From a virus (taxonomy: Duplodnaviria; Heunggongvirae; Uroviricota; Caudoviricetes), in IMG/VR virus record IMGVR_UViG_3300020049_016248: 64,000 nt of DNA; one strand, written 5' to 3'. Below, one piece after another: positions 3,605-36,076 of this stretch. The first letter of the stretch is position 1. Every line of letters starts with the position of its first letter. Made by a program: the position numbers and the translations under genes. The notes under the pieces were generated by a model that saw nothing but the letters and a program-made list of their open reading frames with translations, did not search any database and was not told the DNA's origin.

Positions 3605-6285
3605 TGATATTTTCAATAACAACAACTGGTTTACAAACACCTGTTATTTTCAATGACTTAGGTGCTAGAACTTTCAGTCATCCTACTGTAAATTTTAATC
3701 TAACAGATGAATTTACAATAGAAGAAATTAGAGAATCTATTGATATCTTTAACGCTCTTGATTTAGGTTATATTACTGCTACGTTAGATGGAGTTAACAT
3801 CACATCTACTAATTTAGATAGTTTATTAGTATTAACGACAGATCCTCGTTTAACTGTTCAAAATATTGTAAATGTAAAAAAGAACCCTGGTATTGGAGAG
3901 TTTTCATCTATAAAAGATGCAATAGATTCAATTTCAGATAACTCTAGTACAAATAGATATTTGATAAGTGTAGGTCCTGGAGAATATATTGAAGCTGAAT
4001 TAGATTTATCAAGTAAACCATATGTTTCAATTATAGGAAGTGGAATTCAAACAACTGTAATTAAACCTAGTTTAAGTAGTCATCATATTTTTAAATTAGG
4101 AACGTATAACGAATTATCTTTTATGTGGTTAGAAGGTGCAGGTTCTGGGTATGCAGCAATTGCATGTTTAGATTCAGGGGACTATTCGCAAGCACATAAA
4201 ATAACTTTTAACGATTGTGATATTAATATTTTAATAACATCTGAGACTCAAGATACTTTCTTTTATGGGGAGTATATTGATTTTAATGGAACATATACAT
4301 ATGGTGTTAGAATTATAGCAAATAATGGGTTTAAAGCTTATGGTAATTTAGAAAATTATTATAACTTTCCAATTGCTAGTTCAACAGGAACTTATATTTC
4401 TGGTGTAGGTTCAGAAGCAAGTATTATAACTAGTGGAAATAAGGGGAATAATTTAGGTACTGGTATCTTATTAGAAGATGGTGCTGAAGTTGATATTCAA
4501 GCTGCATATATTGAACATTGGGAAAATGGTATTATAATAAGTAATACTGGAGCTTTTTCTATATTAGACGCACAGTCTTTAGATATAAGTAGTTGTTCAG
4601 TTTATCATTTGAATATAGATCATTCATTTGCAGAAGGTAGCTTTATAGGGTCTTTAAATACAAACTTAATAATAAATCAATCTTCAAGTTTTGTTATAAG
4701 TGCAACAGATCATGAAAATAAAAATATACTATTAGGTGGTAATTCTATAACAAATATTAATTCATTAACTGTTACTTCTTTTACGCCAGGTCAAATCGTA
4801 TTCCCTAGTACTGGAGGTTTATTAGCAGGTAGTTCTAATTTGTTTTGGGATGCTGCAACTAATAGATTAGGGATTGGTAACAGTTTACCTACAGTAGCTT
4901 TAGATGTTACAGGTTCTATTAAACTTTCTGGAACTCTTACTATAGATACCTTATCTGGTATATTGAAAGCTTCATCTGGTGTTGTGACAGGTTCAGCAAC
5001 TACATCTGATTTACCTGAAGGTACTAATTTATATTATACTGATGCAAAAGTAATTGCTGCACCTTTAACTGGTTATACGTCAGGAACTGGTATCATTTCA
5101 GCAGCAGATACTGTATTACAAGCAATCCAAAAATTAAACGGTAATATAAATGCATTAACAACTGGTGTTAGTTCAGTTAACGGATTAACAGGTGCTGTTG
5201 CATTAACAGGTACAAGTGACAGGATAACAATATCAGTTGCTAATGTTTTCGACATTGCCTCTACTTATGTAGGGCAAATTTCAATTACAACACTAGGAAC
5301 TATTACAACAGGAACTTGGAACGGTACAATAATATCTCCAACGTATGGTGGAACTGGTATTAATAATGCAAGTAGAACTTTAACAATAAACACAAACAGT
5401 GGGATTTTGGATTTTACTAATAGTAGCACAACTTTAACAATATCAAGTAATGCAACAGTTAGTGGGACAAATACGGGTGACAATGCAGTTAATACTTTGT
5501 ACAGTGGATTAGCATCCTCTAAAGAAGATGTATCAAACAAAGCAACTTCATTTGCAACATTAAACAATGTTTTATACCCAACGACTCAAGCAGTTTCAAC
5601 ATACGTAACAGGGCTTGGTTATTTAACTGCTACATCATTACCTAATAATACTATATTTACAAATGCGTTAGGTCAAAACATTTTTGCAACAGGTTCAAAT
5701 AAATTATATCTGTATTCAGGAACAGCTGGTATACAGTTTACAAATCAAGCGAACACTACAGCTATTGGTGATCTTACTAACACAGGTGATTTTAGTGTAA
5801 TTGGTAGTATATCAGCTAGTAATTTAACAGGAACGAATACAGGAGATCAGACGTTGAATAGTTTATTACCAACACAAACTGGAAATAGCGGTAAAGTACT
5901 ACAAACAGATGGTTCTAATCCAAGTTGGTCAGATAATTATGGAACATTTGGTATAACTATAGATGGTGCAGGGAATGTAATTACTACAGGTTTTAAACAA
6001 TATTTAATTATACCATATAACTGTGTAATAATAGGTTGGTATATCATTGCTAATACAGTTGGTTCATGCGTTATCGATGTATGGAAAGACGTAACAATCC
6101 CAACGAGCGGTGATAGTATTACTGGAACTGAAAAACCAACATTAACTGGACAACAAACAAATAGTGACAGTTCACTGTCAACGTGGACAACGACAGTAAA
6201 TGCTAATGATATTATTGGATTTAATGTTGATTCAATTAGTGGTTTAAGTAAAATAACACTAGTAATAAAAGTAAGAAAAATTTAA
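3604..6285 (+). CDS. long tail-fibre protein with pectin-lyase-like region
   Basis: FSSIKDAID...VGPGEY.E beta-helix start; N-terminus, internal module and C-terminus paralogous to 364..1377. Confidence 0.7.
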   Translation: MIFSITTTGLQTPVIFNDLGARTFSHPTVNFNLTDEFTIEEIRESIDIFNALDLGYITATLDGVNITSTNLDSLLVLTTDPRLTVQNIVNVKKNPGIGEFSSIKDAIDSISDNSSTNRYLISVGPGEYIEAELDLSSKPYVSIIGSGIQTTVIKPSLSSHHIFKLGTYNELSFMWLEGAGSGYAAIACLDSGDYSQAHKITFNDCDINILITSETQDTFFYGEYIDFNGTYTYGVRIIANNGFKAYGNLENYYNFPIASSTGTYISGVGSEASIITSGNKGNNLGTGILLEDGAEVDIQAAYIEHWENGIIISNTGAFSILDAQSLDISSCSVYHLNIDHSFAEGSFIGSLNTNLIINQSSSFVISATDHENKNILLGGNSITNINSLTVTSFTPGQIVFPSTGGLLAGSSNLFWDAATNRLGIGNSLPTVALDVTGSIKLSGTLTIDTLSGILKASSGVVTGSATTSDLPEGTNLYYTDAKVIAAPLTGYTSGTGIISAADTVLQAIQKLNGNINALTTGVSSVNGLTGAVALTGTSDRITISVANVFDIASTYVGQISITTLGTITTGTWNGTIISPTYGGTGINNASRTLTINTNSGILDFTNSSTTLTISSNATVSGTNTGDNAVNTLYSGLASSKEDVSNKATSFATLNNVLYPTTQAVSTYVTGLGYLTATSLPNNTIFTNALGQNIFATGSNKLYLYSGTAGIQFTNQANTTAIGDLTNTGDFSVIGSISASNLTGTNTGDQTLNSLLPTQTGNSGKVLQTDGSNPSWSDNYGTFGITIDGAGNVITTGFKQYLIIPYNCVIIGWYIIANTVGSCVIDVWKDVTIPTSGDSITGTEKPTLTGQQTNSDSSLSTWTTTVNANDIIGFNVDSISGLSKITLVIKVRKI

Positions 6286-6300
6286 AATTATATATATATA

Positions 6301-8415
6301 ATGTCAATAAAAGCAATACAACATAAGTTCACAGGGGATACTACGTTGGTAAGTGCATATGATTCCACTAAAACAAATTTAGGGGCACTTATAAAACAAT
6401 ATACGGGTGCTACAAGTTTAGATAAATTTGCAGGTCCATGTAAAGTTGGAATAGGTAGACCTATGGAGCAATCAACAGCAATTCCTGGGGTATACCCTTA
6501 TGTTTATAGATTTTCAAATACAATAGATCATGTTTTTTTAGCTGATTTAGCGACAGCTGCTGCAACTAGAAGAATTATAATGTATGAATATAATAGAGAA
6601 ACCTCACAGTTTAATTGGAAAGGATTTATTACATTAACATATCCTACAGCTACAACTCATACTATAAAAGGTATGCGTATGGTAAGAGAGTTATATACTA
6701 CAGGGACAGTTGCAGTATCAGGTACAGCTGTAACAGGAACTAGTACAACATGGACAACTGATAGAATGTCAGTTGGTTGTAGAATAGGTTTTGGATCAAC
6801 TGATCCAACACAAATAACAACATGGTATACTATATCAGCAGTTGGGTCTAATACTTCTATAACATTAACAGCATCTGCTGGTACTATATCAGCTGGAACT
6901 GCTTATGTAATTGAAGATTTAATGTGTATAACAACAACAGTAAATGCAACTGCTACTAACGGTGGGTTGTATGTTGCAAAAGGTTTAAATGTTGATATTT
7001 TTACTTCTGTTGGAACTACTATACCTGCAGCTACTACAGTTGACAATATTAGAGCTGTATATTGGTTAGCTGATGCATCAACTGTAACAAATACAATTGC
7101 ATGCGGAAGTGCTATTAATGATAAAGTTTCTTGGATAGATGCAAACGTTTATGTTTTAGATGCAACAGGTCCTAAGGTATATAAATATAATTACAGAAAA
7201 GCGTTAACACTTGCTTCTGGTAAAGATACAACAACTTTAGTTTTAACTACTGGTACTCAAGCAGTAACAGGTACTATATCACAAACTAACAATGGACGCA
7301 TAGGAACTTTAAATCACGGTCCAGGTGCAGGTGTTCCTTGTTTATATTTTGTAACAACTACTAGATGTTATAGAGCTATATTAACAAATATAACAGCAGC
7401 TTCAACAACATGGCAAGCTGATACAATGGTAGAAATTCCCCCTGGTAGTGTTAATACATATGCTGCTGGTGGTGCATTTGCGTGTGTTGAAATAGCAGGT
7501 GATATAGATAGATTAGTTATAACATCAACAGGTGCTGCTGGTATTAGAAGTTATGTTACTCAATATAATACAACATCTAATCCATTTGATCATATATTTT
7601 TATCAGATGATAAACAATTAGATCAGTCATTAGCAGATTCAGGGGGCACTCCTCACCCTGCAATATTAGCATCAATTATGACACCTTGGTCAGAACAAGG
7701 AGTGTTATATTTAGCTAGAAGTGGTACAACAGCAATATTGAATCAAATTTATACTATTCCAATTGGTGCTCATAGAGCTTATGCTAATGCTAATGAACAA
7801 TTATTAATTACACCTAGTTTTGATATATCTGACGCTAATAAATTATATAATTTATATGTGAATGATATACATGCAGTAGGTGATAGTACATTTTCAGTTC
7901 AAACTGAACCATATGATATTTATTATAGAACAAGTGGAATAACTGATAATAGTGGAACTTGGAATTTATTAGATGAAAGTGGGGATTTAAGTGGTGTAAC
8001 AGGTACAAATATACAATTTAGTTTTATGTTTAAAATATTAGGAATAACATGTATACCGTCTAGAATATTATCTTTAACATTAACATATGAAGATACTACA
8101 AATGATAGTCATTATACACCATCTGTAGCAAATTCATCTATAGCAAGTAGAATCTTTGCATACAGACAAGATGTAGCTTGGGGAAGTAATATACCAACAA
8201 TGAGAATACAATTATACAATGCAGTAACTAATGTATTATTAATAGATGATGACACTTCAGCTCAAGCATATGGAACATTTGAATACTCATCAGATAATGG
8301 TGGGACATGGAATGCATGGTTGAATACTGCAGATGTTGTAGGAAACTACATTAGATACACTGCAGCATCATTACCAGATGGGACAAGAGTGAAAGCAATA
8401 ATATCTCAAGCTTAA
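6301..8415 (+). CDS. virion structural protein
   Basis: 704 aa, T/A/G-rich, GTVAVSGTAVTGTSTTW-type fibre motif, inside the tail cluster. Confidence 0.55.
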   Translation: MSIKAIQHKFTGDTTLVSAYDSTKTNLGALIKQYTGATSLDKFAGPCKVGIGRPMEQSTAIPGVYPYVYRFSNTIDHVFLADLATAAATRRIIMYEYNRETSQFNWKGFITLTYPTATTHTIKGMRMVRELYTTGTVAVSGTAVTGTSTTWTTDRMSVGCRIGFGSTDPTQITTWYTISAVGSNTSITLTASAGTISAGTAYVIEDLMCITTTVNATATNGGLYVAKGLNVDIFTSVGTTIPAATTVDNIRAVYWLADASTVTNTIACGSAINDKVSWIDANVYVLDATGPKVYKYNYRKALTLASGKDTTTLVLTTGTQAVTGTISQTNNGRIGTLNHGPGAGVPCLYFVTTTRCYRAILTNITAASTTWQADTMVEIPPGSVNTYAAGGAFACVEIAGDIDRLVITSTGAAGIRSYVTQYNTTSNPFDHIFLSDDKQLDQSLADSGGTPHPAILASIMTPWSEQGVLYLARSGTTAILNQIYTIPIGAHRAYANANEQLLITPSFDISDANKLYNLYVNDIHAVGDSTFSVQTEPYDIYYRTSGITDNSGTWNLLDESGDLSGVTGTNIQFSFMFKILGITCIPSRILSLTLTYEDTTNDSHYTPSVANSSIASRIFAYRQDVAWGSNIPTMRIQLYNAVTNVLLIDDDTSAQAYGTFEYSSDNGGTWNAWLNTADVVGNYIRYTAASLPDGTRVKAIISQA

Positions 8416-8428
8416 TAAATAAAGAATA

Positions 8429-8590
8429 ATGATAGCTGATATTGTATATAGTACAAATGAATTTATTTTAGAAGTACCAAATGGAACTCCAGGGGGTGTT
8501 ATAAAATCGTATTCATTAGATGGTCTTAATTATGATTTTACTGAATCAATAGGTGGAGGTGGTGAAACAAGCAGTGTATTCGTAACATAG
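8429..8590 (+). CDS. 53-aa small protein missing from the ORF track
   Basis: MIADIVYSTNEF...GGGGETSSVFVT*; A-rich leader; fills the gap between two genes. Confidence 0.6.
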   Translation: MIADIVYSTNEFILEVPNGTPGGVIKSYSLDGLNYDFTESIGGGGETSSVFVT

Positions 8591-8604
8591 TTAAAAGTAA
8601 AATA

Positions 8605-9141
8605 ATGGGAAATCAAAAAGCTAAGTTTAAAATAAATAAATCTTGGGATAGTCCTGAGTTATTAGATTATGATATTTTAGGTTATCATAAGAAAAGAACT
8701 ATTATAAAAGGTGAATTAGTTTCTATTGAATATTATAAAAACTATGACGGAGTTGATTATTCAGACTTAGTAGTTAAAGAAGAAAGAACTTACACTAGAA
8801 ATAATTTAGGTCTAGTACAGTCTAGACTATTAACAATAACTTGGTATTTAGAAGATAATACTGCAGGTTATATTAAGTCATGTAAAAAGTTTTATTCTTC
8901 ATCAGAATCTATAGATGAAGGTATTACAAGAAGAAATAATATAATTAACGATGCAAAAGTTTATGTTTTATCTGCTATAGGTCAAAGTTATGGTTTTGAT
9001 TTCATGACAAGTTTAAAATCACAAATTGATTTATATACACAAGGATATAAACAACCTTTGTATGATGCTATATTAAGCAGTTCAAAAGCATATCTAACAG
9101 AACAAATTAAAAATAATTTAATAGATATTGTCACATTCTAG
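8605..9141 (+). CDS. hypothetical protein
   Basis: 178-aa ORF in the structural operon. Confidence 0.6.
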   Translation: MGNQKAKFKINKSWDSPELLDYDILGYHKKRTIIKGELVSIEYYKNYDGVDYSDLVVKEERTYTRNNLGLVQSRLLTITWYLEDNTAGYIKSCKKFYSSSESIDEGITRRNNIINDAKVYVLSAIGQSYGFDFMTSLKSQIDLYTQGYKQPLYDAILSSSKAYLTEQIKNNLIDIVTF

Positions 9142-9186
9142 CACCTTAAGTGATATTTACGTTTACGAATATTTAACTTATCCTTA

Positions 9187-9762
9187 ATGAAAGCAGTAGA
9201 AAAATATAACAAATTAAGACAAGAACTTAAAACAGGTGATATTGTCTTATTTCATAGAAAATCATTATTAGCAAACATTATACAATGGGCTGATAACTCT
9301 TACTATAATCATGCATCTATTGTATATTGGTTAGGGGATAGATTATTTACTGTAGATGCATGGGATAATGGAACAGAAATTGTCCCACTTTCAAGAAGAA
9401 TAAAACAATATGATGATTTTTGTATTGTGAGAAAAAACAACATTACACCTCAAGAATTACGTTTTGCTTGTTCTAATTTAATTTCTCGTATAGAAAAAGA
9501 TGAACCTTATGGTTGGTTAGAATTAGTTAGAAGACTAATTTGGTTAAAAGTTTTAAACAAAAACAACAAATTTTCTAACATAGAAAACTGGATTGCAAAA
9601 AAAAGACTACCAGTATGTAGTGATGTAGCAAGAGAATTCGGGGTAGATCTTGGAATCGTTTCATATAAAAGTTTAATATTACCTACACCTGAAGATTTAA
9701 AAAGACATGCACAGGAATCAGAAACTACAGTTTTATGGCATGATCATAAAGATAAACTATAA
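9187..9762 (+). CDS. permuted papain-like amidase (YaeF/YiiX-type NlpC/P60)
   Basis: LKTGDIVLF, YNHASIV (His) preceding PVCSDV (Cys), the circularly permuted order. Confidence 0.8.
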   Translation: MKAVEKYNKLRQELKTGDIVLFHRKSLLANIIQWADNSYYNHASIVYWLGDRLFTVDAWDNGTEIVPLSRRIKQYDDFCIVRKNNITPQELRFACSNLISRIEKDEPYGWLELVRRLIWLKVLNKNNKFSNIENWIAKKRLPVCSDVAREFGVDLGIVSYKSLILPTPEDLKRHAQESETTVLWHDHKDKL

Positions 9763-9765
9763 CTA

Positions 9766-10149
9766 ATGGCAGAAACATTTCGTAGAAGACCTTATTCTGA
9801 TTACCCTTTTTTGATAATTACTAATCACCCTTATAGAATTAAGTTAGGAAACTTAAGACAAACATTAAGAGTTTTTGTTCATCAGAAAGATAATCTTTTT
9901 GGAGATTCAAACCCTTTAGATTTAGCTGGGTTAACTATTACATTCAATTTATATAATTCAGATAATGTTTTAGTTGCATCTGGACCTGCTTATGTATCAG
10001 ATATAAATGAATCTGAGATTGAATATACTTGGTCTAATTTTGATTTGAAAGAAACGGGTGTTTTCAATGGTGAGTTTCTATTCTCAGATATTGATAATAC
10101 AACTTTTGTTCTTCCGAACAATGATCGAATTCAAATCATAGTTTTTTAA
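9766..10149 (+). CDS. BppU-N/Ig-like baseplate-associated protein
   Basis: DLAGLTITFNL...EIEYTW...DL.ETG.FNGEF...TTFVLP pattern. Confidence 0.55.
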   Translation: MAETFRRRPYSDYPFLIITNHPYRIKLGNLRQTLRVFVHQKDNLFGDSNPLDLAGLTITFNLYNSDNVLVASGPAYVSDINESEIEYTWSNFDLKETGVFNGEFLFSDIDNTTFVLPNNDRIQIIVF

Positions 10150-10907
10150 TGGGTACATCAAGTTTTTGTGTATATTTTCACATAAACCCTGTCAAACAAG
10201 AAGTATTCTATGTAGGAGCAGGGACTTTAGAGAGACCTTTTCAAAGTTTAAACAGAAGTAAATTTTGGAAAGATACGGTTAATAAATACGATTATGAAAT
10301 TATAATAATTCATAGTAATTTGACATGGAAACAAGCATGTAAACTTGAGATTAAATATATAGCTCAAATAGGGCGTAGAATAACTAAAGAAGGTCCTTTA
10401 GTTAATATTACAAAAGGTGGAGAAGGGTTCCGTGGGAAACATACACCGGAAACGAAGTTAAAAATGAGTCTAGCAAGTAAAGGGCATAAAAGAAACACAG
10501 GTCGAACTCTTTCATTAGAAACTAAAATAAAAATTGGGAAAGCGAATTCTTTAAAAAAAAGAACTATTGAACAAAAAGAAAACCTACGAAAGAAAGCTTT
10601 AGGGAATAAAAACATGTTAGGAAAACATCATTCTGAAGAAACAAAAGAAAAACTCCGTTTAGCAAGAAAAAATTATAAACATTCTGAAGAAACAAAAAAG
10701 AAAATTTCCTTAAAAAACAAAGGTAAAATTCCCTGGAACAAAGGGATAGTTAAACCTAAAACAATTTTAAAAGGACCTGGGAAAGGGAAGTTTAAACGTT
10801 CAGAAGAGTTTAAAGCTAAACTAAGTGCAATGAAAAGAGGAAAACTACGTGGACCATATAAAAAATTAGCAAAACAAAACAAGGAAATTACAATTTCACC
10901 TATTTAA
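10149..10907 (+). CDS. free-standing GIY-YIG-type homing endonuclease with NUMOD3 repeats
   Basis: CVYFH...VFYVG, LEIKYI, LVNITKGGEG, followed by repeated H(T/S)EETK.K.S NUMOD3 motifs. Confidence 0.85.
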   Translation: MGTSSFCVYFHINPVKQEVFYVGAGTLERPFQSLNRSKFWKDTVNKYDYEIIIIHSNLTWKQACKLEIKYIAQIGRRITKEGPLVNITKGGEGFRGKHTPETKLKMSLASKGHKRNTGRTLSLETKIKIGKANSLKKRTIEQKENLRKKALGNKNMLGKHHSEETKEKLRLARKNYKHSEETKKKISLKNKGKIPWNKGIVKPKTILKGPGKGKFKRSEEFKAKLSAMKRGKLRGPYKKLAKQNKEITISPI

Positions 10908-10971
10908 AGACATAGATGACACTACGTTCATCTTACCAGAGAGAGATCGAATTCAAATTGTAGTTTTTTAA
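10900..10971 (+). pseudogene. orphan second copy of the 3' end of the 9766..10149 gene
   Basis: Translates LFKDIDDTTFILPERDRIQIVVF* versus LFSDIDNTTFVLPNNDRIQIIVF* at 10078-10149; no start codon of its own. Confidence 0.85.
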
Positions 10972-10989
10972 TTAAAATCTAAAAATTTA

Positions 10990-11400
10990 ATGGATAAAGC
11001 AAAAATCATCCACAATGTTTTAAAACAAGTGGATTGGGATTTTATTTTTCTATGCGCAAAGCATATGAAATATAAGTTAAAGAAACAAAGACTAACAAAA
11101 GAACAATTGATTTTAGATTTAACAGATATTTTGAAGAATATGTTAGAGTCTAAGAAAAATAAATTAATTGTAGACTTTTGGACTATTACAGCTGAGTATA
11201 CTGAAGATGATAAAGTTTGCTTAGAAGTAATCTTCACCCCAATTATTGTATGGTCTGATAATTTATCAACAGGGAAATCGAAGAAAACAAGTGAAGAAAG
11301 ATTAAAAGAAAGATTAGAGTTAGCACTTGAGATTGAAGATTACACTAAAGCAGCTGAAATTAAAAAAAGTTTAGATAAGTTGCAGTCAAAGTTAAAATAA
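10990..11400 (+). CDS. hypothetical protein with C-terminal UvrB/UvrC (UVR) motif
   Basis: LKERLELALEIEDYTKAAEIKKSL. Confidence 0.6.
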   Translation: MDKAKIIHNVLKQVDWDFIFLCAKHMKYKLKKQRLTKEQLILDLTDILKNMLESKKNKLIVDFWTITAEYTEDDKVCLEVIFTPIIVWSDNLSTGKSKKTSEERLKERLELALEIEDYTKAAEIKKSLDKLQSKLK

Positions 11401-11405
11401 TTGTC

Positions 11406-11411
11406 TATTTA
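11406..11411 (+). promoter_or_regulatory. TATTTA putative late promoter (representative copy)
   Basis: 18 nt before ATG 11430; same motif 17-21 nt before ATGs at 2825, 17437, 25965, 40214, 53922, 57493 and 61698. Confidence 0.6.
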
Positions 11412-11429
11412 AAAATAAAACAAATCATA

Positions 11430-11756
11430 ATGGCAGAATTTATAAAAAAGAATCCTAGAGGTTCAGATAATACAATCGCGAATACAACAGTTACAGTAAC
11501 ATCTCCAGAAGATATTGCAAGATTAGCTGCTGCAGATATTAAAACTAATGTTGTTGATCAAAGTATTAAAATCGTATCTGGTTCTACAGTTTTAGCGATT
11601 GTTAATATCCCTACAGTAACTAATTGGACTTTAGCAGGTACAAGATTAACTATTTTAGGAACTAATCCTTTAACATTAAGTTTTTTAAGTGCTTCAGAAG
11701 CAATTAACGGTGAAAGTCGTCTAGCTCAAATTATAAACGGTGCAACTTTAGCTTAA
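11430..11756 (+). CDS. structural protein, paralog of 17083..17403
   Basis: SGSTVLA.....V..W.L....LTI......LTLSF.S..EAIN shared with 17083 ORF. Confidence 0.6.
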   Translation: MAEFIKKNPRGSDNTIANTTVTVTSPEDIARLAAADIKTNVVDQSIKIVSGSTVLAIVNIPTVTNWTLAGTRLTILGTNPLTLSFLSASEAINGESRLAQIINGATLA

Positions 11757-11759
11757 TAA

Positions 11760-12218
11760 ATGTATCTATCAACTAATTTTATAGCTCCATATGTTGGAAC
11801 TGATAAGAAAATTATTTTAAGAAATTCTAGCAGTGTAACTGTTGGAGGTTTTAATGTTTGTCATTATCAAAAAGCTTTAACAGAAGGTAAGCAACTTTGG
11901 ATTAATTTAGCAGATGTAAGATTGGTGTTAGATTTTGGAACTGAAACTGATGCTAAAGCAGCTTTAGTTTTATTACAAATTGCAGTTGAAGCTTTAGTTA
12001 TAAACTGCGCTATAGATAGTGGATCTTCTACATATATACATGAACAAACTGTTGCAAATTCTATTTGGACTATAAGTCATAATTTAAACAGATTCCCTTC
12101 TGTAACAGTAGTGGATGATGGTGATGAGGTTATATTAGCTAATGTAACTTATGTAAATAATAATATAATACTAGTGTACTTCGGAAGTAGTTACACTGGG
12201 AAAGCTTACTTAAATTAA
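11760..12218 (+). CDS. structural protein; N-domain paralogous to 17437..18795
   Basis: NFI...GTDK.I......VGG..VC shared; C-terminal WTISHNLNRFPSVTVVD motif. Confidence 0.6.
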   Translation: MYLSTNFIAPYVGTDKKIILRNSSSVTVGGFNVCHYQKALTEGKQLWINLADVRLVLDFGTETDAKAALVLLQIAVEALVINCAIDSGSSTYIHEQTVANSIWTISHNLNRFPSVTVVDDGDEVILANVTYVNNNIILVYFGSSYTGKAYLN

Positions 12219-13474
12219 TGAAACTAGGAAATCATTTAAACTTTAATCAGTATGAATTGCAAAACGGTGTAATTGAAAACCTTTCAATTGCTCCTAGTAA
12301 TCCTATATCTGGTCAAGTGTATTTTAACACAACAGATAATTTGTTTTATTTATTTGATGGGACTAATTGGGTATCTTTAAACAATCCACCGTCTTCATTA
12401 AGTGGAAATGTTGATGTTGCTTGTACAGGTACAGATACTTATATAGGGGTAGGTTCTCAATTAGTATCTGATTATAATACATCTACAATTTATATTTGTA
12501 CTTTTGAAAATGCAAATACATCAACTACACCTACAATAGATATTGACGGTGCTGGTGTATTAACTATTGTTAAAAGTGACGAAACAGGTATTATTGCATT
12601 AGAAGCAGGTGATATACAACCGTTAGTTTCTTATTTCTTAGTTTGGGATGGTGCTGTGTCGATTCAATTATATACTCAAACACCTACTGCTGACCCTGGG
12701 ACATATACAAATCTAAACCCTGTACCTACAACGATAGGTGGAATTTCAGCAGGTGTAACGTTTAATAATACGACATACTCTCAAGTTTTTGATACATTGC
12801 TTTACCCTTATATGGTTCCAAACTTTACAAGTTTTGCAATCACAGGTCAAGCTTTAACTTTAGAAGTAGGAGCTTCAATTGCAGCAGGAAGTAAAACATA
12901 TACTTGGGGGACTACAAATTCAGGAAATATTCAAACAAATACTATTAGAATTAGAAATGGTGCTACAGTAATACTTGACAATTCACCAAATGATGGTTCT
13001 CAAGTAATCAATTTAGCTTCACCAATAACTAAAACAACTGTTACTTCTAATAGTTGGGATATAAGAGCAACGAGAACAAATGGGTCTTATATGACAAGAA
13101 CTATGACAGTTTGGTGGTATTATAGACACTATTATGGTACTTCAATAAACCCTACATTAACAGAGACAGATATTGAAGCGTTAACATCAAATTTCTTAGG
13201 AACAACAATTACAGGGAATTATAATTTTCTTGCAGGTGGATATAAGTATTTTGCTTTTCCGAACACTGCACCTAACCCTACACTGTTTAAAGACTCAACA
13301 ACTAACTTAGCAATTGCAATGGCAGACGCTACTGATAGTTATACAGATACAAATGCAGGAATATATTCTTTTCAACTTGTATCTGTTACAAATACATACG
13401 GTGTAACTATAGATTATAGAGTTTATCGCTCAAAATATATCTTAGGTTCATCTATTCAAATTAATATAATATAA
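12218..13474 (+). CDS. tail-fibre-associated structural protein
   Basis: LQNGVIENLSIAPSNP..GQVYFNTTD..FYLFDGTNW N-terminal motif. Confidence 0.6.
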   Translation: MKLGNHLNFNQYELQNGVIENLSIAPSNPISGQVYFNTTDNLFYLFDGTNWVSLNNPPSSLSGNVDVACTGTDTYIGVGSQLVSDYNTSTIYICTFENANTSTTPTIDIDGAGVLTIVKSDETGIIALEAGDIQPLVSYFLVWDGAVSIQLYTQTPTADPGTYTNLNPVPTTIGGISAGVTFNNTTYSQVFDTLLYPYMVPNFTSFAITGQALTLEVGASIAAGSKTYTWGTTNSGNIQTNTIRIRNGATVILDNSPNDGSQVINLASPITKTTVTSNSWDIRATRTNGSYMTRTMTVWWYYRHYYGTSINPTLTETDIEALTSNFLGTTITGNYNFLAGGYKYFAFPNTAPNPTLFKDSTTNLAIAMADATDSYTDTNAGIYSFQLVSVTNTYGVTIDYRVYRSKYILGSSIQINII

Positions 13475-13487
13475 GATAAAAATATAA

Positions 13488-16400
13488 ATGGCAATATCAG
13501 GCACAATTCCAGTTACAGGTCCTATAGCTCCAACAGTAGAAACAGATGTATATTCAACTCACGATGCAACTTATGGTAGAGGTGGGTTGAGAACTGTTGC
13601 AGATAATACTGAAAGAAATGCTATATCTGAAGAGAGAAGAGCTGAAGGTATGGTAGTTGGTGTAATAGCTACTGGTTTATATTGGAAATTAAAAACTGCT
13701 CCTTGGGCATATGATGATACAGATTGGGATGTTTTCTTTGATATGTCTACATCTTGGACTTTAGATGGAAATGCAAACGGGGCAGAAAAATATTTCGGAA
13801 CGAATGACAATTACGATGTTCCTTTCGTAGCTAATGGTAATGAAGTACTTAGATTGGGTGCTGATGGGTCAGTAAGCTCAACTAATGGATATTGGATAAA
13901 TGGAAGAAAAGCTATTAACGCTGATTATGATACTAATTTTTCAATTGCATTATGGATGAGTGGAGCTGCACCACATTTTCCTGATTTTGGTACAAGTACG
14001 AGAAATGCTATGATCGGTATCAATGATACTGGAAGTATTAATATAACAACAGGTTCAAATAATTTTATTGCAGGTTCTTTTCAAAGTATTAACTTAACTT
14101 CAGGTAATAGAAATATATTAATAGGAGGGTATAATTCCCCTAATATAGTATCAGGATCTGATAATATGTTTTTTGGCAATTCTAATACTACAAACAACGC
14201 TATTAATCAATCTATAGCTTTTAACGCTGAACCTACTGCTAATAGTCAAGTAGTATTTGGTCATAGTAATAGAGCTAGATATAATGAATTTTATTTCGGT
14301 CAAGGTTTATATACCCCTGATTCATATGGTAAATTTGATTTATATTTTAAAGCAACACCTTCATTAGCAGGTGAAACGGATAAAAATGCAACAGTGTCCA
14401 CTTGGTATTTTGATGCATCTCAAGGTACTGGTATCGGTACAGGTGGAGGTTTCATATTCAGGGTAGCTCCACCAACAACAGGCGGAAATACTTTAAATCC
14501 GTTTATTGATGCTTTAATAATAGACCCTAAAGGTATTGTTCATTCTCATGGAGCTACAGGTATTATTTCAAATACTGTATTCGGTCAAGATTCGTTAATG
14601 AATAATGTTACAGGTCATGGTAATACTGTTTATGGTCAAAATATTATGACTCTTAACTTAGATGGTTTTTTAAATACTGCAGTAGGTTCAAATACATTAC
14701 AACAAACTAATGGTAATCAAAACACTGTAGTAGGGGGTTATAATATGTATTATTCTCAAACAGGGGATAAAAACACAGCTATAGGGTATGCTGCATTGTT
14801 TAGTACTGATGGAGTAGGTGAACAAACTGCTGTTGGAGCTGAATCGTTAATGTATACAACTACAGGTGCCCAGAATTCAGCTTTAGGGTATAGATCATTA
14901 TACTCTAATACAACAGGTATTAGAAACACCGCTGTAGGACATAGTTCTTCTTATTCTAATACTATAGGTGGTAATAATACATCTTTAGGTTTTTATTCTT
15001 TGTATAATAATATAGATGGTAATGGTAATTTAGCTTTAGGTAGTTATGCTTTATTTACTAACACTAGTAGTTATAGTGTTGCAGTAGGTTTTGAATCATT
15101 ACATTACAATCAAGGTAATACAAATACAGCAATTGGTGGATATTCATTATATGCAAATTCGACAGGTGGACAAAATGTTGCTATAGGTTATTCTGCAGCT
15201 GAAAGCAATACAACAGGTGGTAGTAATACTGCAATTGGACATGCTGCTTTAGCAGGGAACACTACAGGTAGTTATAATGTTGCTATCGGTAGACAAGCAA
15301 ATAGAGCTGTATCAGGTGATTATAATGTTGCTATTGGTATTTATTCAATGTTTAATACAGTTGGAACTGGTAGTTATAATACAGCTATAGGTTCCGGTAC
15401 ATTAGCAGGAAATACTACAGGTAATGAAAACACTGCTATTGGTTATTATGCATTAACAGCTAATACAACAGGAAATCAAAACGTTGCTATTGGAGCTGAA
15501 GCTTTATTTAGTAATACTACAGGTTTAAAATCAACAGCAATAGGTTTTCAAGCATTGAGAAACCAAACAACAGATGGTTATAATTTAGCAATTGGTCATC
15601 AAGCTTTGAGAGATAACACTTCAGGCACTGAAAACTTAGCTATTGGTGCTTATGATTCTATGAGATATAATTTAACTGGAGGTCAGAATATTGCTATTGG
15701 TTCTAGTACATTAAGAGATAATTCAACAGGTTCTCAAAACGTAGCCTTAGGTAGAGAGTCATTAGTTACAAACTTAAGTGGTTCAGGTAATATTGCTATT
15801 GGTTTAAGTTCATTAGCAGGAAACACTACAGGTTCATTTAACGTTGCTATTGGTAGACAATCAAAAAATTCAGGAAACGGTGATTATAATGTTGCTTTAG
15901 GTTATCAATCACATTATACAAGTAATGGTTCTAACAATACTGCTATTGGTGCATATGCATATAAAACAGCAGTTGGTGGTGATAACAACACGCTGATTGG
16001 TTATGATGTATTAAGTTCTTATGCAGGTTCACCTTCTGGTAATACGTTAATAGGTTCAAGTGTGATGGGTTCTGCTACAACTAAAGGAAATTATAATATT
16101 GGTATAGGGTTTCAAGTTCTTTATTATAATGAAGTAGATTCTCAAGTAGCTATTGGTCATAGGTCAATGTACAATACAACTACAGGTGTTCAGAATACTG
16201 CTATTGGTTATGAAACAATGTTAGCTAACAATGTAGGTTTTCTAAACACAGCAATTGGATATAGAGCATTGTATGCTAATACAACTGGTAACAGTAATAC
16301 AGCTGTGAGTTACGCTTTAGTAGCGAATACAACTGGAGTAGGAAATACAGCAATTGGACACGTATCTTTAGCAGCGAATACAACTGGCCAATACAATACA

Positions 16401-18828: not shown

Positions 18829-21579
18829 ATGTCAAAAATAAAAACAAAACAAATAGATGCATATATTGCTGCACCTGTCCTTGTTAGAAGTTTTGCTAGT
18901 GCGAATGGTGCAAGTAATAATGTTACTACTGCTATAGCAAGTGAATTAGCAACAGCATCTAATTCTGGAGGGGCAGTGGATGTAGTAAATGCATCTACAT
19001 ATAATACTCCTGGTATTATAGTTGGAACTACTTATAAAATAAGATTAGTTAGATCAGGTACTAGAAAAGTTATAACAACGAGTGATGGTTTTGAAATCTA
19101 CGGGAAATTAACATATAGTTCCCCAACTTATACTTTAACTTACTATTACACTAATAAAACTGGTTCAGAGGTAGCTACTAACATTACAGGACCTATCACA
19201 ATCGATTTCCTTTTCTATTACCAATTTAAGTTAAAAGATTTACCTGTTAACTCTCTAACAAATATGAGAGAATTTTTTAACAACGGTGTACCTGTAACTA
19301 TGGATGATATTACAGGAACATCTGGAGGTTATTTTATAACAACAAATGCATCTACGAAGAGAGCTGAATCTGTTTATGTATTCAATGCAGCCTCTATTCC
19401 TTTTTCTTCTGTTAATTACGTTGCAACTGATGTTGAAGCAGCTTTAGATGAAATTGCTTTAAACCCATTACCAACAGTTATTTCTCAAGATATTAAGTTA
19501 GCTAATGGATATATTTACACTTCACAAAATGGAGTTGGTAATGTTAACACTCGTTATGGTGGAGTTAATAGTCAAGCATATATTGGTTCAGCATTAGTAG
19601 CTACAGAAGGTTGGTTTCTAGCTACACCTACATATGCTGAAATTGCATATGGAGATATTGCTAATGCAAGTAGAATTAGATTTAGAGTTGACTCTACAGG
19701 AGCACTTTTAAATTCTAGTAAAGTTATATTAGGTTTTAATCAAGAGTTTTATTTAGTAAACAATGCAGGAGCAAATGTTACAACTGCAGATACAGACAAA
19801 TTAGCTATAGGAATTGGTGCAAGAAACGTTGAGTTTGATACAGCAGTTGTAAATTCAGTTGCTGTAGCTGGTGATTATAATGGTTATCTAGTTGATCAAA
19901 GTAATTCATTATATACTTTGAATAAAATATATATGGTTAACACAGCAGGGACTTTTGCAACACAATTATTATCTGCTGCAACTTCAAATATAACTTTATC
20001 TTTACCAATAGTAACAAGTGATATAGCTGGTGTTACTACTGCTGCTGCTAACTATCTACCTGTTTTTGATAACTCTGGTGATGCTATTTTTACAACATCT
20101 CTAGTTTCACAAGATTCTACAACAAAAGAATTAGGGGTGAATACAGCACCAGTTAATGATACTATTATTTCAGTAGAAGCTTTTAACGCTATTGGAACAC
20201 AATATGCAGGTTACTTTAACGCTGTTAGTGGTTTAGCTACAAATAATTATGCTTTAAGGTTAAATGCTGAAAATGCTGTAACAGCTAATTATGCTTTAGC
20301 AATTGACAACGGTGATTATTATCATCAAAATGGTTTTATAGGAATTGGAGCTACACCTACAGTTACTGAAAAAATTAATGTTGAAATAACTGCAGAAGAA
20401 AATGCTTTAAAAATTGTTAGTACATACCCAGGATTAGTAACACAAAGAGGTGTATATTCTTTATTAAGTGGGGTTAACACAACAAATATTGCAGGTTATT
20501 TTTCTGCAAGTAATGCTACAAATAATTATGCATTAATAGCTGCTGCTGGACAGTCAGTTTTCGGAGCTACATCTGCAACTACTGCTGATGCATTAGTTGA
20601 ATTTACTTCAACAACGAAAGGTGTTGTTTTCCCTAGAATGACTACAGTACAAAAAAATGCAATAGTAACACCAGTGAATGGTATGATCGTTTATGATACT
20701 ACTTTAAATTCGTTTTACGGATATATGAATAGTGCATGGAGATTAATTAATACAGTTTCTAGTGCAGGTACAAGTGGTTCATTACCAAAATTCGGATCTT
20801 CTGGTTATGATTTAGTAGATTCAATTGTAAGTGAAGCTAGTAGTATTGTTACTATTAAAGGTCAAGCTCGTGTTTTAGTAGGAACAACTACACCTTTCGA
20901 TACAACTTCAGAAAGAAGTTTCTACACTGAACATAAAACTATAACTGATTTAAGTGCTGATAAATTAGGTTTACTTTCTATTAATTATTTAGAAAATCAA
21001 ACAGTTAATAATAATGCAGATATTATCTCAGGGATAACAGGTATTGCATATTGGAATCAAACAACACCTGCTATAAGTTTAACAAAAGATTTATCTGCAA
21101 GAGGTGTTTTCGGTGGAGTTTATATGACTGGAAATGGTACTATTAACTATGCTGCAGGTTTTTCTACAACACATTCTATTGGAGTAGGTTGTACTGTTGA
21201 CAATTTAATTAGTTATAAAGCTAATATGGGTAATGCAAATGCTGGTACGATTAATGAATATAGAGCTTTTTATCTTGATGATCAATCTGCTTTAGCAGCA
21301 GCACCTAGTGCCGCTAATCGTTATGGTTTATATTTAGCTGACCCTGGTACTAATTATATTGAAGGAACTGTAGGTATTGGAACAAGTTCAGTAACAACTT
21401 CAGCTTTATTAGAATTAAGTTCAACAAGTTTAGGTTTCTTACCACCTAGAATGACTACAGTGCAAAAAAATGCAATAGGTACACCTGCTAATGGTTTAGT
21501 AGTGTTCGATACTACTTTGCAAAAATTATGTGTGTATACTTCAACAGGTCCAGGTTGGGAGACAGTTACATCAGCTTAA
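18829..21579 (+). CDS. tail-fibre protein
   Basis: Two PRMTTVQKNAI.TP.NG..V.DTTL modules; GIGTSS motif. Confidence 0.7.
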   Translation: MSKIKTKQIDAYIAAPVLVRSFASANGASNNVTTAIASELATASNSGGAVDVVNASTYNTPGIIVGTTYKIRLVRSGTRKVITTSDGFEIYGKLTYSSPTYTLTYYYTNKTGSEVATNITGPITIDFLFYYQFKLKDLPVNSLTNMREFFNNGVPVTMDDITGTSGGYFITTNASTKRAESVYVFNAASIPFSSVNYVATDVEAALDEIALNPLPTVISQDIKLANGYIYTSQNGVGNVNTRYGGVNSQAYIGSALVATEGWFLATPTYAEIAYGDIANASRIRFRVDSTGALLNSSKVILGFNQEFYLVNNAGANVTTADTDKLAIGIGARNVEFDTAVVNSVAVAGDYNGYLVDQSNSLYTLNKIYMVNTAGTFATQLLSAATSNITLSLPIVTSDIAGVTTAAANYLPVFDNSGDAIFTTSLVSQDSTTKELGVNTAPVNDTIISVEAFNAIGTQYAGYFNAVSGLATNNYALRLNAENAVTANYALAIDNGDYYHQNGFIGIGATPTVTEKINVEITAEENALKIVSTYPGLVTQRGVYSLLSGVNTTNIAGYFSASNATNNYALIAAAGQSVFGATSATTADALVEFTSTTKGVVFPRMTTVQKNAIVTPVNGMIVYDTTLNSFYGYMNSAWRLINTVSSAGTSGSLPKFGSSGYDLVDSIVSEASSIVTIKGQARVLVGTTTPFDTTSERSFYTEHKTITDLSADKLGLLSINYLENQTVNNNADIISGITGIAYWNQTTPAISLTKDLSARGVFGGVYMTGNGTINYAAGFSTTHSIGVGCTVDNLISYKANMGNANAGTINEYRAFYLDDQSALAAAPSAANRYGLYLADPGTNYIEGTVGIGTSSVTTSALLELSSTSLGFLPPRMTTVQKNAIGTPANGLVVFDTTLQKLCVYTSTGPGWETVTSA

Positions 21580-34919: not shown

Positions 34920-35430
34920 TTATATTTGCTTGTTTTATTCGATAATCTTCCCAAGATTTACAGTTTTCTAAGAGTGGAAATAATTTCCAAAACTTTTTCC
35001 AAACAGATTTATTAGCTCTTTGTTTAGGGAAACGAATTGAAGTAATTGACCCACCACCGCTTCCTACTCGTACATCTTTATTATCTCTTCCTTCCTTTTT
35101 AGGTTTTGCTTGATATCTGCTACTTAACTTTCTACTTTCATCATTTTTAACACGCCATATTTTATAGAATTCAGATTCTGAATAAGTAAATGAACTTATT
35201 TTATAAGCTTCAATTATTTTATGTTTTACAGAATCTGATTGTTGTAAATGATAAAAAGAATTATCAGAACGTTTAAGTGATTCTTTTACATCTGCTAAAT
35301 ACACAGGTCTAATCTGAAAAACTTGTTTTAAAATTTTTCTCTGTTTTGCAGAGAGTGTTTCCCAAAAAGTATTGAAGATAATATCATCAACGATATTTAC
35401 TTGCACTGTTTTTTTTGTTGTTGTTTTCAT
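34906..35430 (-). CDS. hypothetical basic protein
   Basis: 174-aa ORF. Confidence 0.55.
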   Translation of the reverse strand: MKTTTKKTVQVNIVDDIIFNTFWETLSAKQRKILKQVFQIRPVYLADVKESLKRSDNSFYHLQQSDSVKHKIIEAYKISSFTYSESEFYKIWRVKNDESRKLSSRYQAKPKKEGRDNKDVRVGSGGGSITSIRFPKQRANKSVWKKFWKLFPLLENCKSWEDYRIKQANINETL

Positions 35431-35451
35431 AAAAGATATGTAACTTTTATT

Positions 35452-35739
35452 TTACTCCTCGTAATGCGGTTCTTTTGACTCAATTGAATGAACTACCCAG
35501 ACTTTTGAATTCCATAAGTCTGATATAGATTTGTAAGAACGTTGTTTACTTAAATCTCTTTGAAGTGAGAACCAGAGGAAATCTTCTTCTATTATTATCT
35601 TATAAACTGTTTCAAAAGCAGTTTTATAGTTAAAATGCCAAAGAGTTAAAGCTAGATAAAATATAAACAATACAACGAGTTTAAAAAGAATGATGTAACC
35701 CCAAAGTACAATCAAAATTAATTTCCAAAGATATTTCAT
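35452..35739 (-). CDS. small membrane protein, tandem paralog 2
   Basis: MKYLWKL.LI.LW...YKSI.DLW shared with 35764 ORF. Confidence 0.7.
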   Translation of the reverse strand: MKYLWKLILIVLWGYIILFKLVVLFIFYLALTLWHFNYKTAFETVYKIIIEEDFLWFSLQRDLSKQRSYKSISDLWNSKVWVVHSIESKEPHYEE

Positions 35740-35763
35740 GTTATTTAGATTTAAGTTTAACGA

Positions 35764-36021
35764 TTATTTTTTAGCTGTCCAAGTTCTTGAAATCCACAAG
35801 TCTGGTATAGATTTGTAATATGTTTTATAAAAAATTCTATCTTTAATTGGAAGATAGAAAAATGTTTTACAATCAATAGTTTCTTGAATCATTATATTTG
35901 CTTTATTGAAATTAAAACTCCAAAGAACTAAAGCAATATAATGTACAATTTTTAGAACAATTTTAAGCATTAAATATAACACCCAAAGTATAATTAAAAC
36001 TAGCTTCCAAAGATATTTCAT
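35764..36021 (-). CDS. small membrane protein, tandem paralog 1
   Basis: Same N-terminal hydrophobic segment and YKSI.DLW motif. Confidence 0.7.
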   Translation of the reverse strand: MKYLWKLVLIILWVLYLMLKIVLKIVHYIALVLWSFNFNKANIMIQETIDCKTFFYLPIKDRIFYKTYYKSIPDLWISRTWTAKK

Positions 36022-36044
36022 ATGTGATATTTTTAACTAATACC

Positions 36045-36076
36045 TAAAGATATGATATAACCTGTAAACTTTCTAC
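36045..36076 (-). promoter_or_regulatory. putative early promoter, copy C
   Basis: Minus strand gtagaaagtttaca-N10-tatcttta. Confidence 0.6.

Follow-up and report, generated by a model that had tools for sequence, protein, structure and literature searches.

A putative selfish element in a phage structural-gene region pairs a GIY-YIG endonuclease gene with a foreign replacement for the end of its host gene

Introduction

How can an endonuclease gene lie within the coding sequence of a phage gene and leave that gene whole, and which of the two gene ends that flank it is the native one? These questions are raised by a locus in the structural-gene region of a large, AT-rich phage, contained in a stretch of 64,000 nucleotides (IMG/VR record IMGVR_UViG_3300020049_016248) called the window below. 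The window also encodes tail-fibre-like and T4-baseplate-like genes, and the interrupted gene, hereafter the host gene, is carried on contigs of up to 219-245 kb. A first-pass annotation had pointed to two 72-nt segments on either side of the endonuclease gene (10078-10149 and 10900-10971), which it read as two recoded versions of the same gene end, one of them part of a mobile unit. Its description of the segments, including their translations, was reproduced throughout: they are identical at 51/72 nucleotides and 17/23 residues, with 9 synonymous differences, both open with CTATT, and the stop codon of the endonuclease gene lies within the second. The comparison with related loci presented here suggests that 822 bp of selfish DNA near the end of the host gene keep it whole by providing its last 22 codons in a foreign version.

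The host gene and its two ends

The host gene (9766-10149, plus strand) encodes 127 residues, the same number as in all its relatives, and is complete without splicing. Pfam, a structure model and Foldseek point to a BppU-N-like immunoglobulin (Ig) fold: the protein matches the Pfam BppU_N profile (PF10651) at E=5e-4 and 20.3 bits, below the cut-off of 23.1, and PF10651 is present in some distant homologues; the model is all-beta (pLDDT 84.7) and matches the NF5 baseplate (TM 0.61) as well as the N-domain of TP901-1 ORF48, although such BppU-type domains stand among many Ig folds that it matches. Judging from these models, the product is probably a tail or baseplate accessory protein. The gene was found in every relative fetched, relatives having been picked for carrying it, and the viral contigs, genome contigs and annotated phages searched held no relatives of it. 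In two of the fetched contigs (L007:1-5000 and L047:1-4000) the genes upstream of it are wholly different and a 447-aa ORF abuts its start, so that a module boundary falls at the host gene as well.

The first gene end, copy 1 (10083-10149, plus strand), comprises 67 nt, or about 22 codons with the stop, and follows the left junction CTATT (10078-10082); the second, copy 2 (10900-10971, plus strand), opens with the right junction CTATT (10900-10904). Nine codons differ synonymously between them (10 nt) and six non-synonymously (11 nt), and their similarity breaks off sharply at either side. A match of at least 51/72 has a chance probability of P=6e-13 per pair and 7e-6 across all pairs in 5 kb. 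In the structure model, residues 113-116 and 122-126, which copy 1 encodes, are the final two β-strands of the sandwich, so that an insertion lacking a replacement end would probably wreck the fold.

Two other repeats in the window were seen along the way. The strongest nearby one (20582-20710 and 21395-21523, 59/72) is an in-frame internal repeat of a 916-aa gene (18829-21579) and was rejected as a second element for that reason; at about 35430-36060, on the minus strand, a small membrane-protein-like ORF occurs twice in tandem, the two copies being diverged and 282 nt apart.

Empty alleles and the native end

The first-pass annotation had predicted that endonuclease-free relatives would end like copy 2, and this is what we observe. 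The 90% cluster of the host protein has 14 members, and the 12 full-length proteins in it other than that of the window all carry the copy-2 type of end. At the DNA level, we compared nine close empty loci (L001, L007, L008 and L045-L050) and a 69%-identical relative (L002). In all of them the endonuclease is absent and the gene for a 136-aa protein, which in the window lies at 10990-11400 (plus strand), starts 15-18 nt after the host gene (17-18 nt after it in the close empty loci). In the 67 nt that follow CTATT, copy 2 shows 0-3 differences from the nine close empty alleles, none of them private, and is identical to L050, whereas copy 1 shows 20-21/67 differences from them and 18/67 from the distant L002. 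Upstream of CTATT, which is single in the empty alleles and forms a 5-bp overlap in the window, the divergence of the window from L001, L045 and L046 is only 2.5-3.8%; at CTATT it leaps to about 30% (Fisher p 5e-11 to 5e-10).

Removing 822 bp (10083-10904, or equivalently 10078-10899) from the window yields an ordinary empty allele. Copy 1 and the enzyme gene thus arrived together and no resident sequence was lost, which supports the proposed mobile unit of a replacement gene end plus a GIY-YIG gene. Since copy 2 matches the empty alleles, it is the native end, recently orphaned and undecayed, and the host gene now joins native codons 1-106 to a foreign end; the earlier proposal of a restored C-terminus and an orphaned resident end accordingly holds. 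The wording of two recoded versions is wrong: copy 1 alone is diverged and foreign, and copy 2 is simply the unchanged native end. Occupied and empty alleles of the same site coexist among the sampled contigs.

The endonuclease

The remainder of the insert is the endonuclease gene (10149-10907, plus strand; 252 aa), which looks intact. Its ATG overlaps the stop codon of the host gene (TAATG) and its own TAA (10905-10907) is supplied by copy 2; no integrase is encoded within the insert. The protein matches phrog_314 (homing endonuclease, E=1e-23) and NUMOD3 (E=2e-17, with three NUMOD3 motifs), the latter being its sole match in Pfam, where the GIY-YIG profile gave none. A PDB search with the single sequence returned no match, and a profile-based one gave weak matches to I-TevI and GIY-YIG proteins. 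The first 90 residues of the structure model have a pLDDT >90, and the top Foldseek matches are all GIY-YIG proteins (PD-T4-3, I-TevI and UvrC), with a probability of 1.00, a TM of 0.65 and a weak E of 0.014 for the I-TevI catalytic domain (1mk0).

The two-strand Tyr...Tyr-x-Gly motif is spelled VYF...YVG, and Y9, Y21, G23, R29, E67 and N86 are invariant across 106 homologues. As GIY-YIG enzymes use a catalytic Arg, Glu and Asn (PMC2988022), the invariance of R29, E67 and N86 fits a full catalytic set. By predicted fold and conserved residues, the enzyme belongs to a divergent GIY-YIG subfamily, and its sequence suggests that it is active.

The insertion site

The insertion point opens a block of low diversity among empty lineages (10900-11045, plus strand), which starts exactly there and extends about 75-100 nt into the gene for the 136-aa protein. 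When six diverged empty lineages are compared, the copy-2 segment ranks within the lowest 1% of intervals over 2.8 kb, with a diversity of 0.031 at all sites (median 0.14) and of 0.075 at synonymous sites (0.27), these fractions being descriptive and not p-values because the six lineages are related and the interval was chosen post hoc. The site thus adjoins the least variable interval of 2.8 kb, as expected of a homing target. The simplest reading of the sequences is that the low diversity reflects constraint within this phage group, which the enzyme would exploit; in L002 the copy-2 part has no special conservation.

An RNA-structural reason for the conservation of copy 2 was considered and found unsupported, since predicted structure was not significant there (z -1.5), nor was it at the junction of copy 1 and the enzyme gene (z -0.3). 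A hairpin is predicted at 11002-11043, in the 5' coding part of the gene for the 136-aa protein, with one compensatory change (C-G to U-A) in L002. A promoter scan was unremarkable (14 found, 8.8 +/- 2.9 expected).

A sister element at a different gene

A related endonuclease, 40% identical to that of the window over 146 aa, is found at four loci (L010:2492-3223, L011:2492-3214, L012:430-1164 and L053:1131-1862) behind another gene, which looks tail-fibre-like and has no Pfam match. As in the window, the start of the enzyme gene overlaps the upstream stop (TAATG); the last 14-16 codons of the enzyme gene are the orphan end of the upstream gene, fused in frame to the enzyme C-terminus, and the replacement extends further than the orphan does. 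In ten empty contigs (L052, L054-L061 and L063) the upstream gene ends as the orphan does, and the same downstream genes follow directly. One of them (L057:549-872) holds, at a different position, a stretch 68% similar to the 5' part of the sister endonuclease.

The four sister enzyme genes are 90-96% identical, and the 300 nt upstream of them fall into two replacement types, 95% and 99% identical within and 59% between types. The DNA downstream is mutually unrelated, each stretch having its match (91-94%) in a different empty contig. Such a set of four backgrounds, with matching empty alleles, is the pattern expected of a unit of replacement end and enzyme gene that moves between backgrounds, and this supports the mobility of the unit. 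A test for duplicated ends at 35 related endonuclease loci, most of them distant or matching by NUMOD3 alone and one (L044) ending 33 nt past the gene, and in 4 annotated phages was positive in L010-L012 only; the closest testable homologues of the window's enzyme (P0004 and P0005, 50%) have no duplicated end. The end-replacing mode would therefore be recurrent and not universal.

Proposed mechanism and alternatives

We consider it probable, with reasonable though not full confidence, that the window holds a phage homing element similar to the WHO elements of yeast and the mobile endonuclease ORFs (mORFs) of fungal mitochondria, which entered by break and repair, is immune through splitting of its target site and is helped in its spread by the orphaned end. 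It would have originated in an unsampled lineage about as distant as L002, where the endonuclease lay directly behind the host gene. Upon co-infection, a break near CTATT would have been repaired on the left by homology and on the right by 5-bp microhomology, so that the new gene end was brought in along with the enzyme gene and the resident end stayed downstream; repair events that are one-sided and end in microhomology have been documented in T4 homing (PMC2988022). The enzyme may recognise a site that spans the insertion point, which the occupied allele would split into a native-left/foreign-right and an enzyme-left/native-right half. For the spread, the orphan end and the DNA downstream would provide the right-hand homology by which the unit homes into empty alleles through gene conversion. 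The TAATG overlap probably couples translation of the enzyme to that of the host gene, as has been suggested for mobE of T4.

A wider reading, which we hold to be conceivable but rather doubtful, is that gene-end-replacing homing is a recurring mode of spread of phage GIY-YIG/NUMOD3 endonucleases and, in addition, that the low-diversity block is a footprint of repeated cutting and gene conversion, by earlier replacement cycles or orphan-templated repair, and not of ordinary constraint.

Two alternatives are unlikely to a similar degree. According to the first, the enzyme cuts at a distance in the manner of the T4 Seg enzymes, for example within 8680-9850, and the replacement end is a by-product of entry and not an immunity device. 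Distant cleavage is the rule for the free-standing enzymes of T4, whose cleavage sites lie hundreds to thousands of bp away from the enzyme genes (PMC2988022), and the window is diverged by 10-13% from the three closest empty alleles over a patch at about 8680-9850. However, the sequence between this patch and the insert (9851-10082) is 99% identical to the empty alleles L045 and L046, interrupting a conversion tract between the patch and the enzyme gene, and the divergence of the patch is below the 30% of copy 1, which suggests a different source. The patch itself spans a gene for a 178-aa protein and a peptidase C92-like gene, and no fetched lineage matches it.

The second of these is a one-off recombination without enzyme action, in which a distant phage contributed the gene end and the endonuclease gene through one crossover at CTATT and an illegitimate second one; the endonuclease would be a passenger and the unit would not home. 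The mosaicism of these phages speaks for this, as does the near-clonality of the occupied contigs, whose flanks are >99.6% identical and represent one background: all occupied copies trace to one acquisition, which counts against homing by the element of the window. On the other hand, the import stops at the stop codon of the enzyme and rejoins at the base of departure with zero deletion, the catalytic set of the endonuclease is intact, and the sister element travels between backgrounds as one unit. The occupied contigs are also nearly invariant over 7 kb (4766-11995 of the window) and share SNP patches in 11996-14566, which could be due to a sweep or to plain mosaicism.

A far less probable scenario is a local duplication of the gene end at insertion of the endonuclease, after which cleavage pressure would have made the working copy diverge fast, an option that Beaudet et al. 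kept open for Glomus atp9 and nad3 (PMC3630166). The donor of copy 1 was found neither by sequence pattern nor among 56+48 distant homologues, which would suit a local origin; yet 21 changes would have to have accumulated in the working copy and none private in the functionless one, and copy 1 is invariant across all occupied contigs. Simple duplication, named as a refuting outcome by the first-pass annotation, is ruled out, as no empty allele matches copy 1. Moreover, copy 1 differs from copy 2 by synonymous changes at 9/17 shared residues and by replacement of 6/23 residues, a mix that matches the one between the window and L002 in the rest of the host gene (34/71 synonymous, 32/105 non-synonymous) and thus points to ordinary between-lineage divergence; at 9/21 differing sites copy 1 has the base of L002. 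We therefore rejected deliberate recoding of copy 1, as the earlier wording implied; the pattern suggests instead that copy 1 derives from a third lineage, outside those sampled, where it ended a functional allele.

Finally, a self-splicing intron or an assembly chimera, in favour of which no point was found, has a negligible probability, as an Rfam search of the locus gave no intron match, the insert is coding throughout with no non-coding room (which also led us to reject a group I intron-encoded endonuclease, no intron core being found by Rfam), the host gene is complete unspliced, and several assemblies, drawn from both JGI and NCBI records, show this layout too (L003-L006 and L009; 99.6-100% identical to the window, of which one may be the window's own source), settling the concern about a chimera that the first-pass annotation had raised.

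Relation to known systems

The strategy of the element, which we favour reading as a homing element as outlined above, had been taken to be undescribed for free-standing homing endonucleases, but fungal mitochondria (PMC3630166) and yeast (PMC7282813) provide published examples of it, and it is not categorically new. In fungal mitochondria, mobile endonuclease ORFs form gene hybrids in Allomyces macrogynus atp6 and in Glomus sp. atp9 (with a GIY-YIG enzyme), cox2 and nad3, where the native end matches relatives at 91-98% and the inserted end is diverged (64-81%); in Glomus atp9, a 51-nt inserted end is followed by the GIY-YIG ORF and a 52-nt native end (PMC3630166), which makes this case close in size to the phage one. 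The order of inserted C-terminus, endonuclease ORF and native C-terminus is the same in the window. The fungal hybrids are, however, organellar and their mobility has been shown biochemically, whereas the phage element is known from sequence; unlike in them, its enzyme gene shares a single base with the host stop, and the orphan provides the stop of the enzyme gene.

WHO elements, which reside at yeast FBA1 (Coughlan et al., 2020, PMC7282813; Osborne et al., 2026, 10.64898/2026.08.13.744650), were described in the 2026 preprint as a rarer third category that uniquely restores its host gene by replacement. They share with the window element the absence of splicing, an allelic variant that replaces the 3' end of the host gene, and the old end downstream as a second region of homology. 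WHO enzymes are LAGLIDADG intein-like proteins with a zinc finger, encoded in the nucleus in tandem clusters, and half of the gene is replaced; the window element is a GIY-YIG/NUMOD3 enzyme gene, single and unclustered, that replaces 22 codons of a phage gene. Its architecture is of the mORF/WHO type and its mode of action would be like that of WHO, without its being a WHO element.

Integrating prophages and islands rebuild their target gene from attP. Like them, the window element has a short direct repeat and a restored gene end, but its insert is 822 bp long and without an integrase, and its repeat is 71% identical with a core of only 5 bp. With the free-standing Seg and Mob endonucleases of T4-like phages (PMC2988022) it shares the phage setting, the lack of an intron, the GIY-YIG fold and a start codon that overlaps the upstream stop, as in nrdA/mobE; unlike it, these Seg and Mob enzymes lie between genes and cut far off, or interrupt a gene so that it yields two polypeptides (Aeh1 nrdA, T4 gene 60). 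The review by Edgell et al. (2010, PMC2988022) does not mention duplicated gene ends (0 matches for 'duplicat'), and the insertions of phage endonucleases that are treated in the searchable reviews and surveys are intergenic or split a gene, with no case of gene-end replacement among them. Within the literature searched, outside which most subscription papers lie, no phage precedent for the layout was found, and the strategy is to that extent undescribed in phages.

Conclusion

The locus shows how a homing endonuclease could be accommodated within the coding sequence of a phage gene that has neither an intron nor an intein and whose protein stays unsplit, and it provides a clean pair in which the empty allele differs from the occupied one by the insert alone, with a short predicted target. 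Short orphan ends behind endonuclease genes may be of use for the computational prediction of target sites. Together with the sister element, the locus indicates that such units may exchange the C-terminal parts of virion proteins among distant phages and so act as a local source of mosaic genes.
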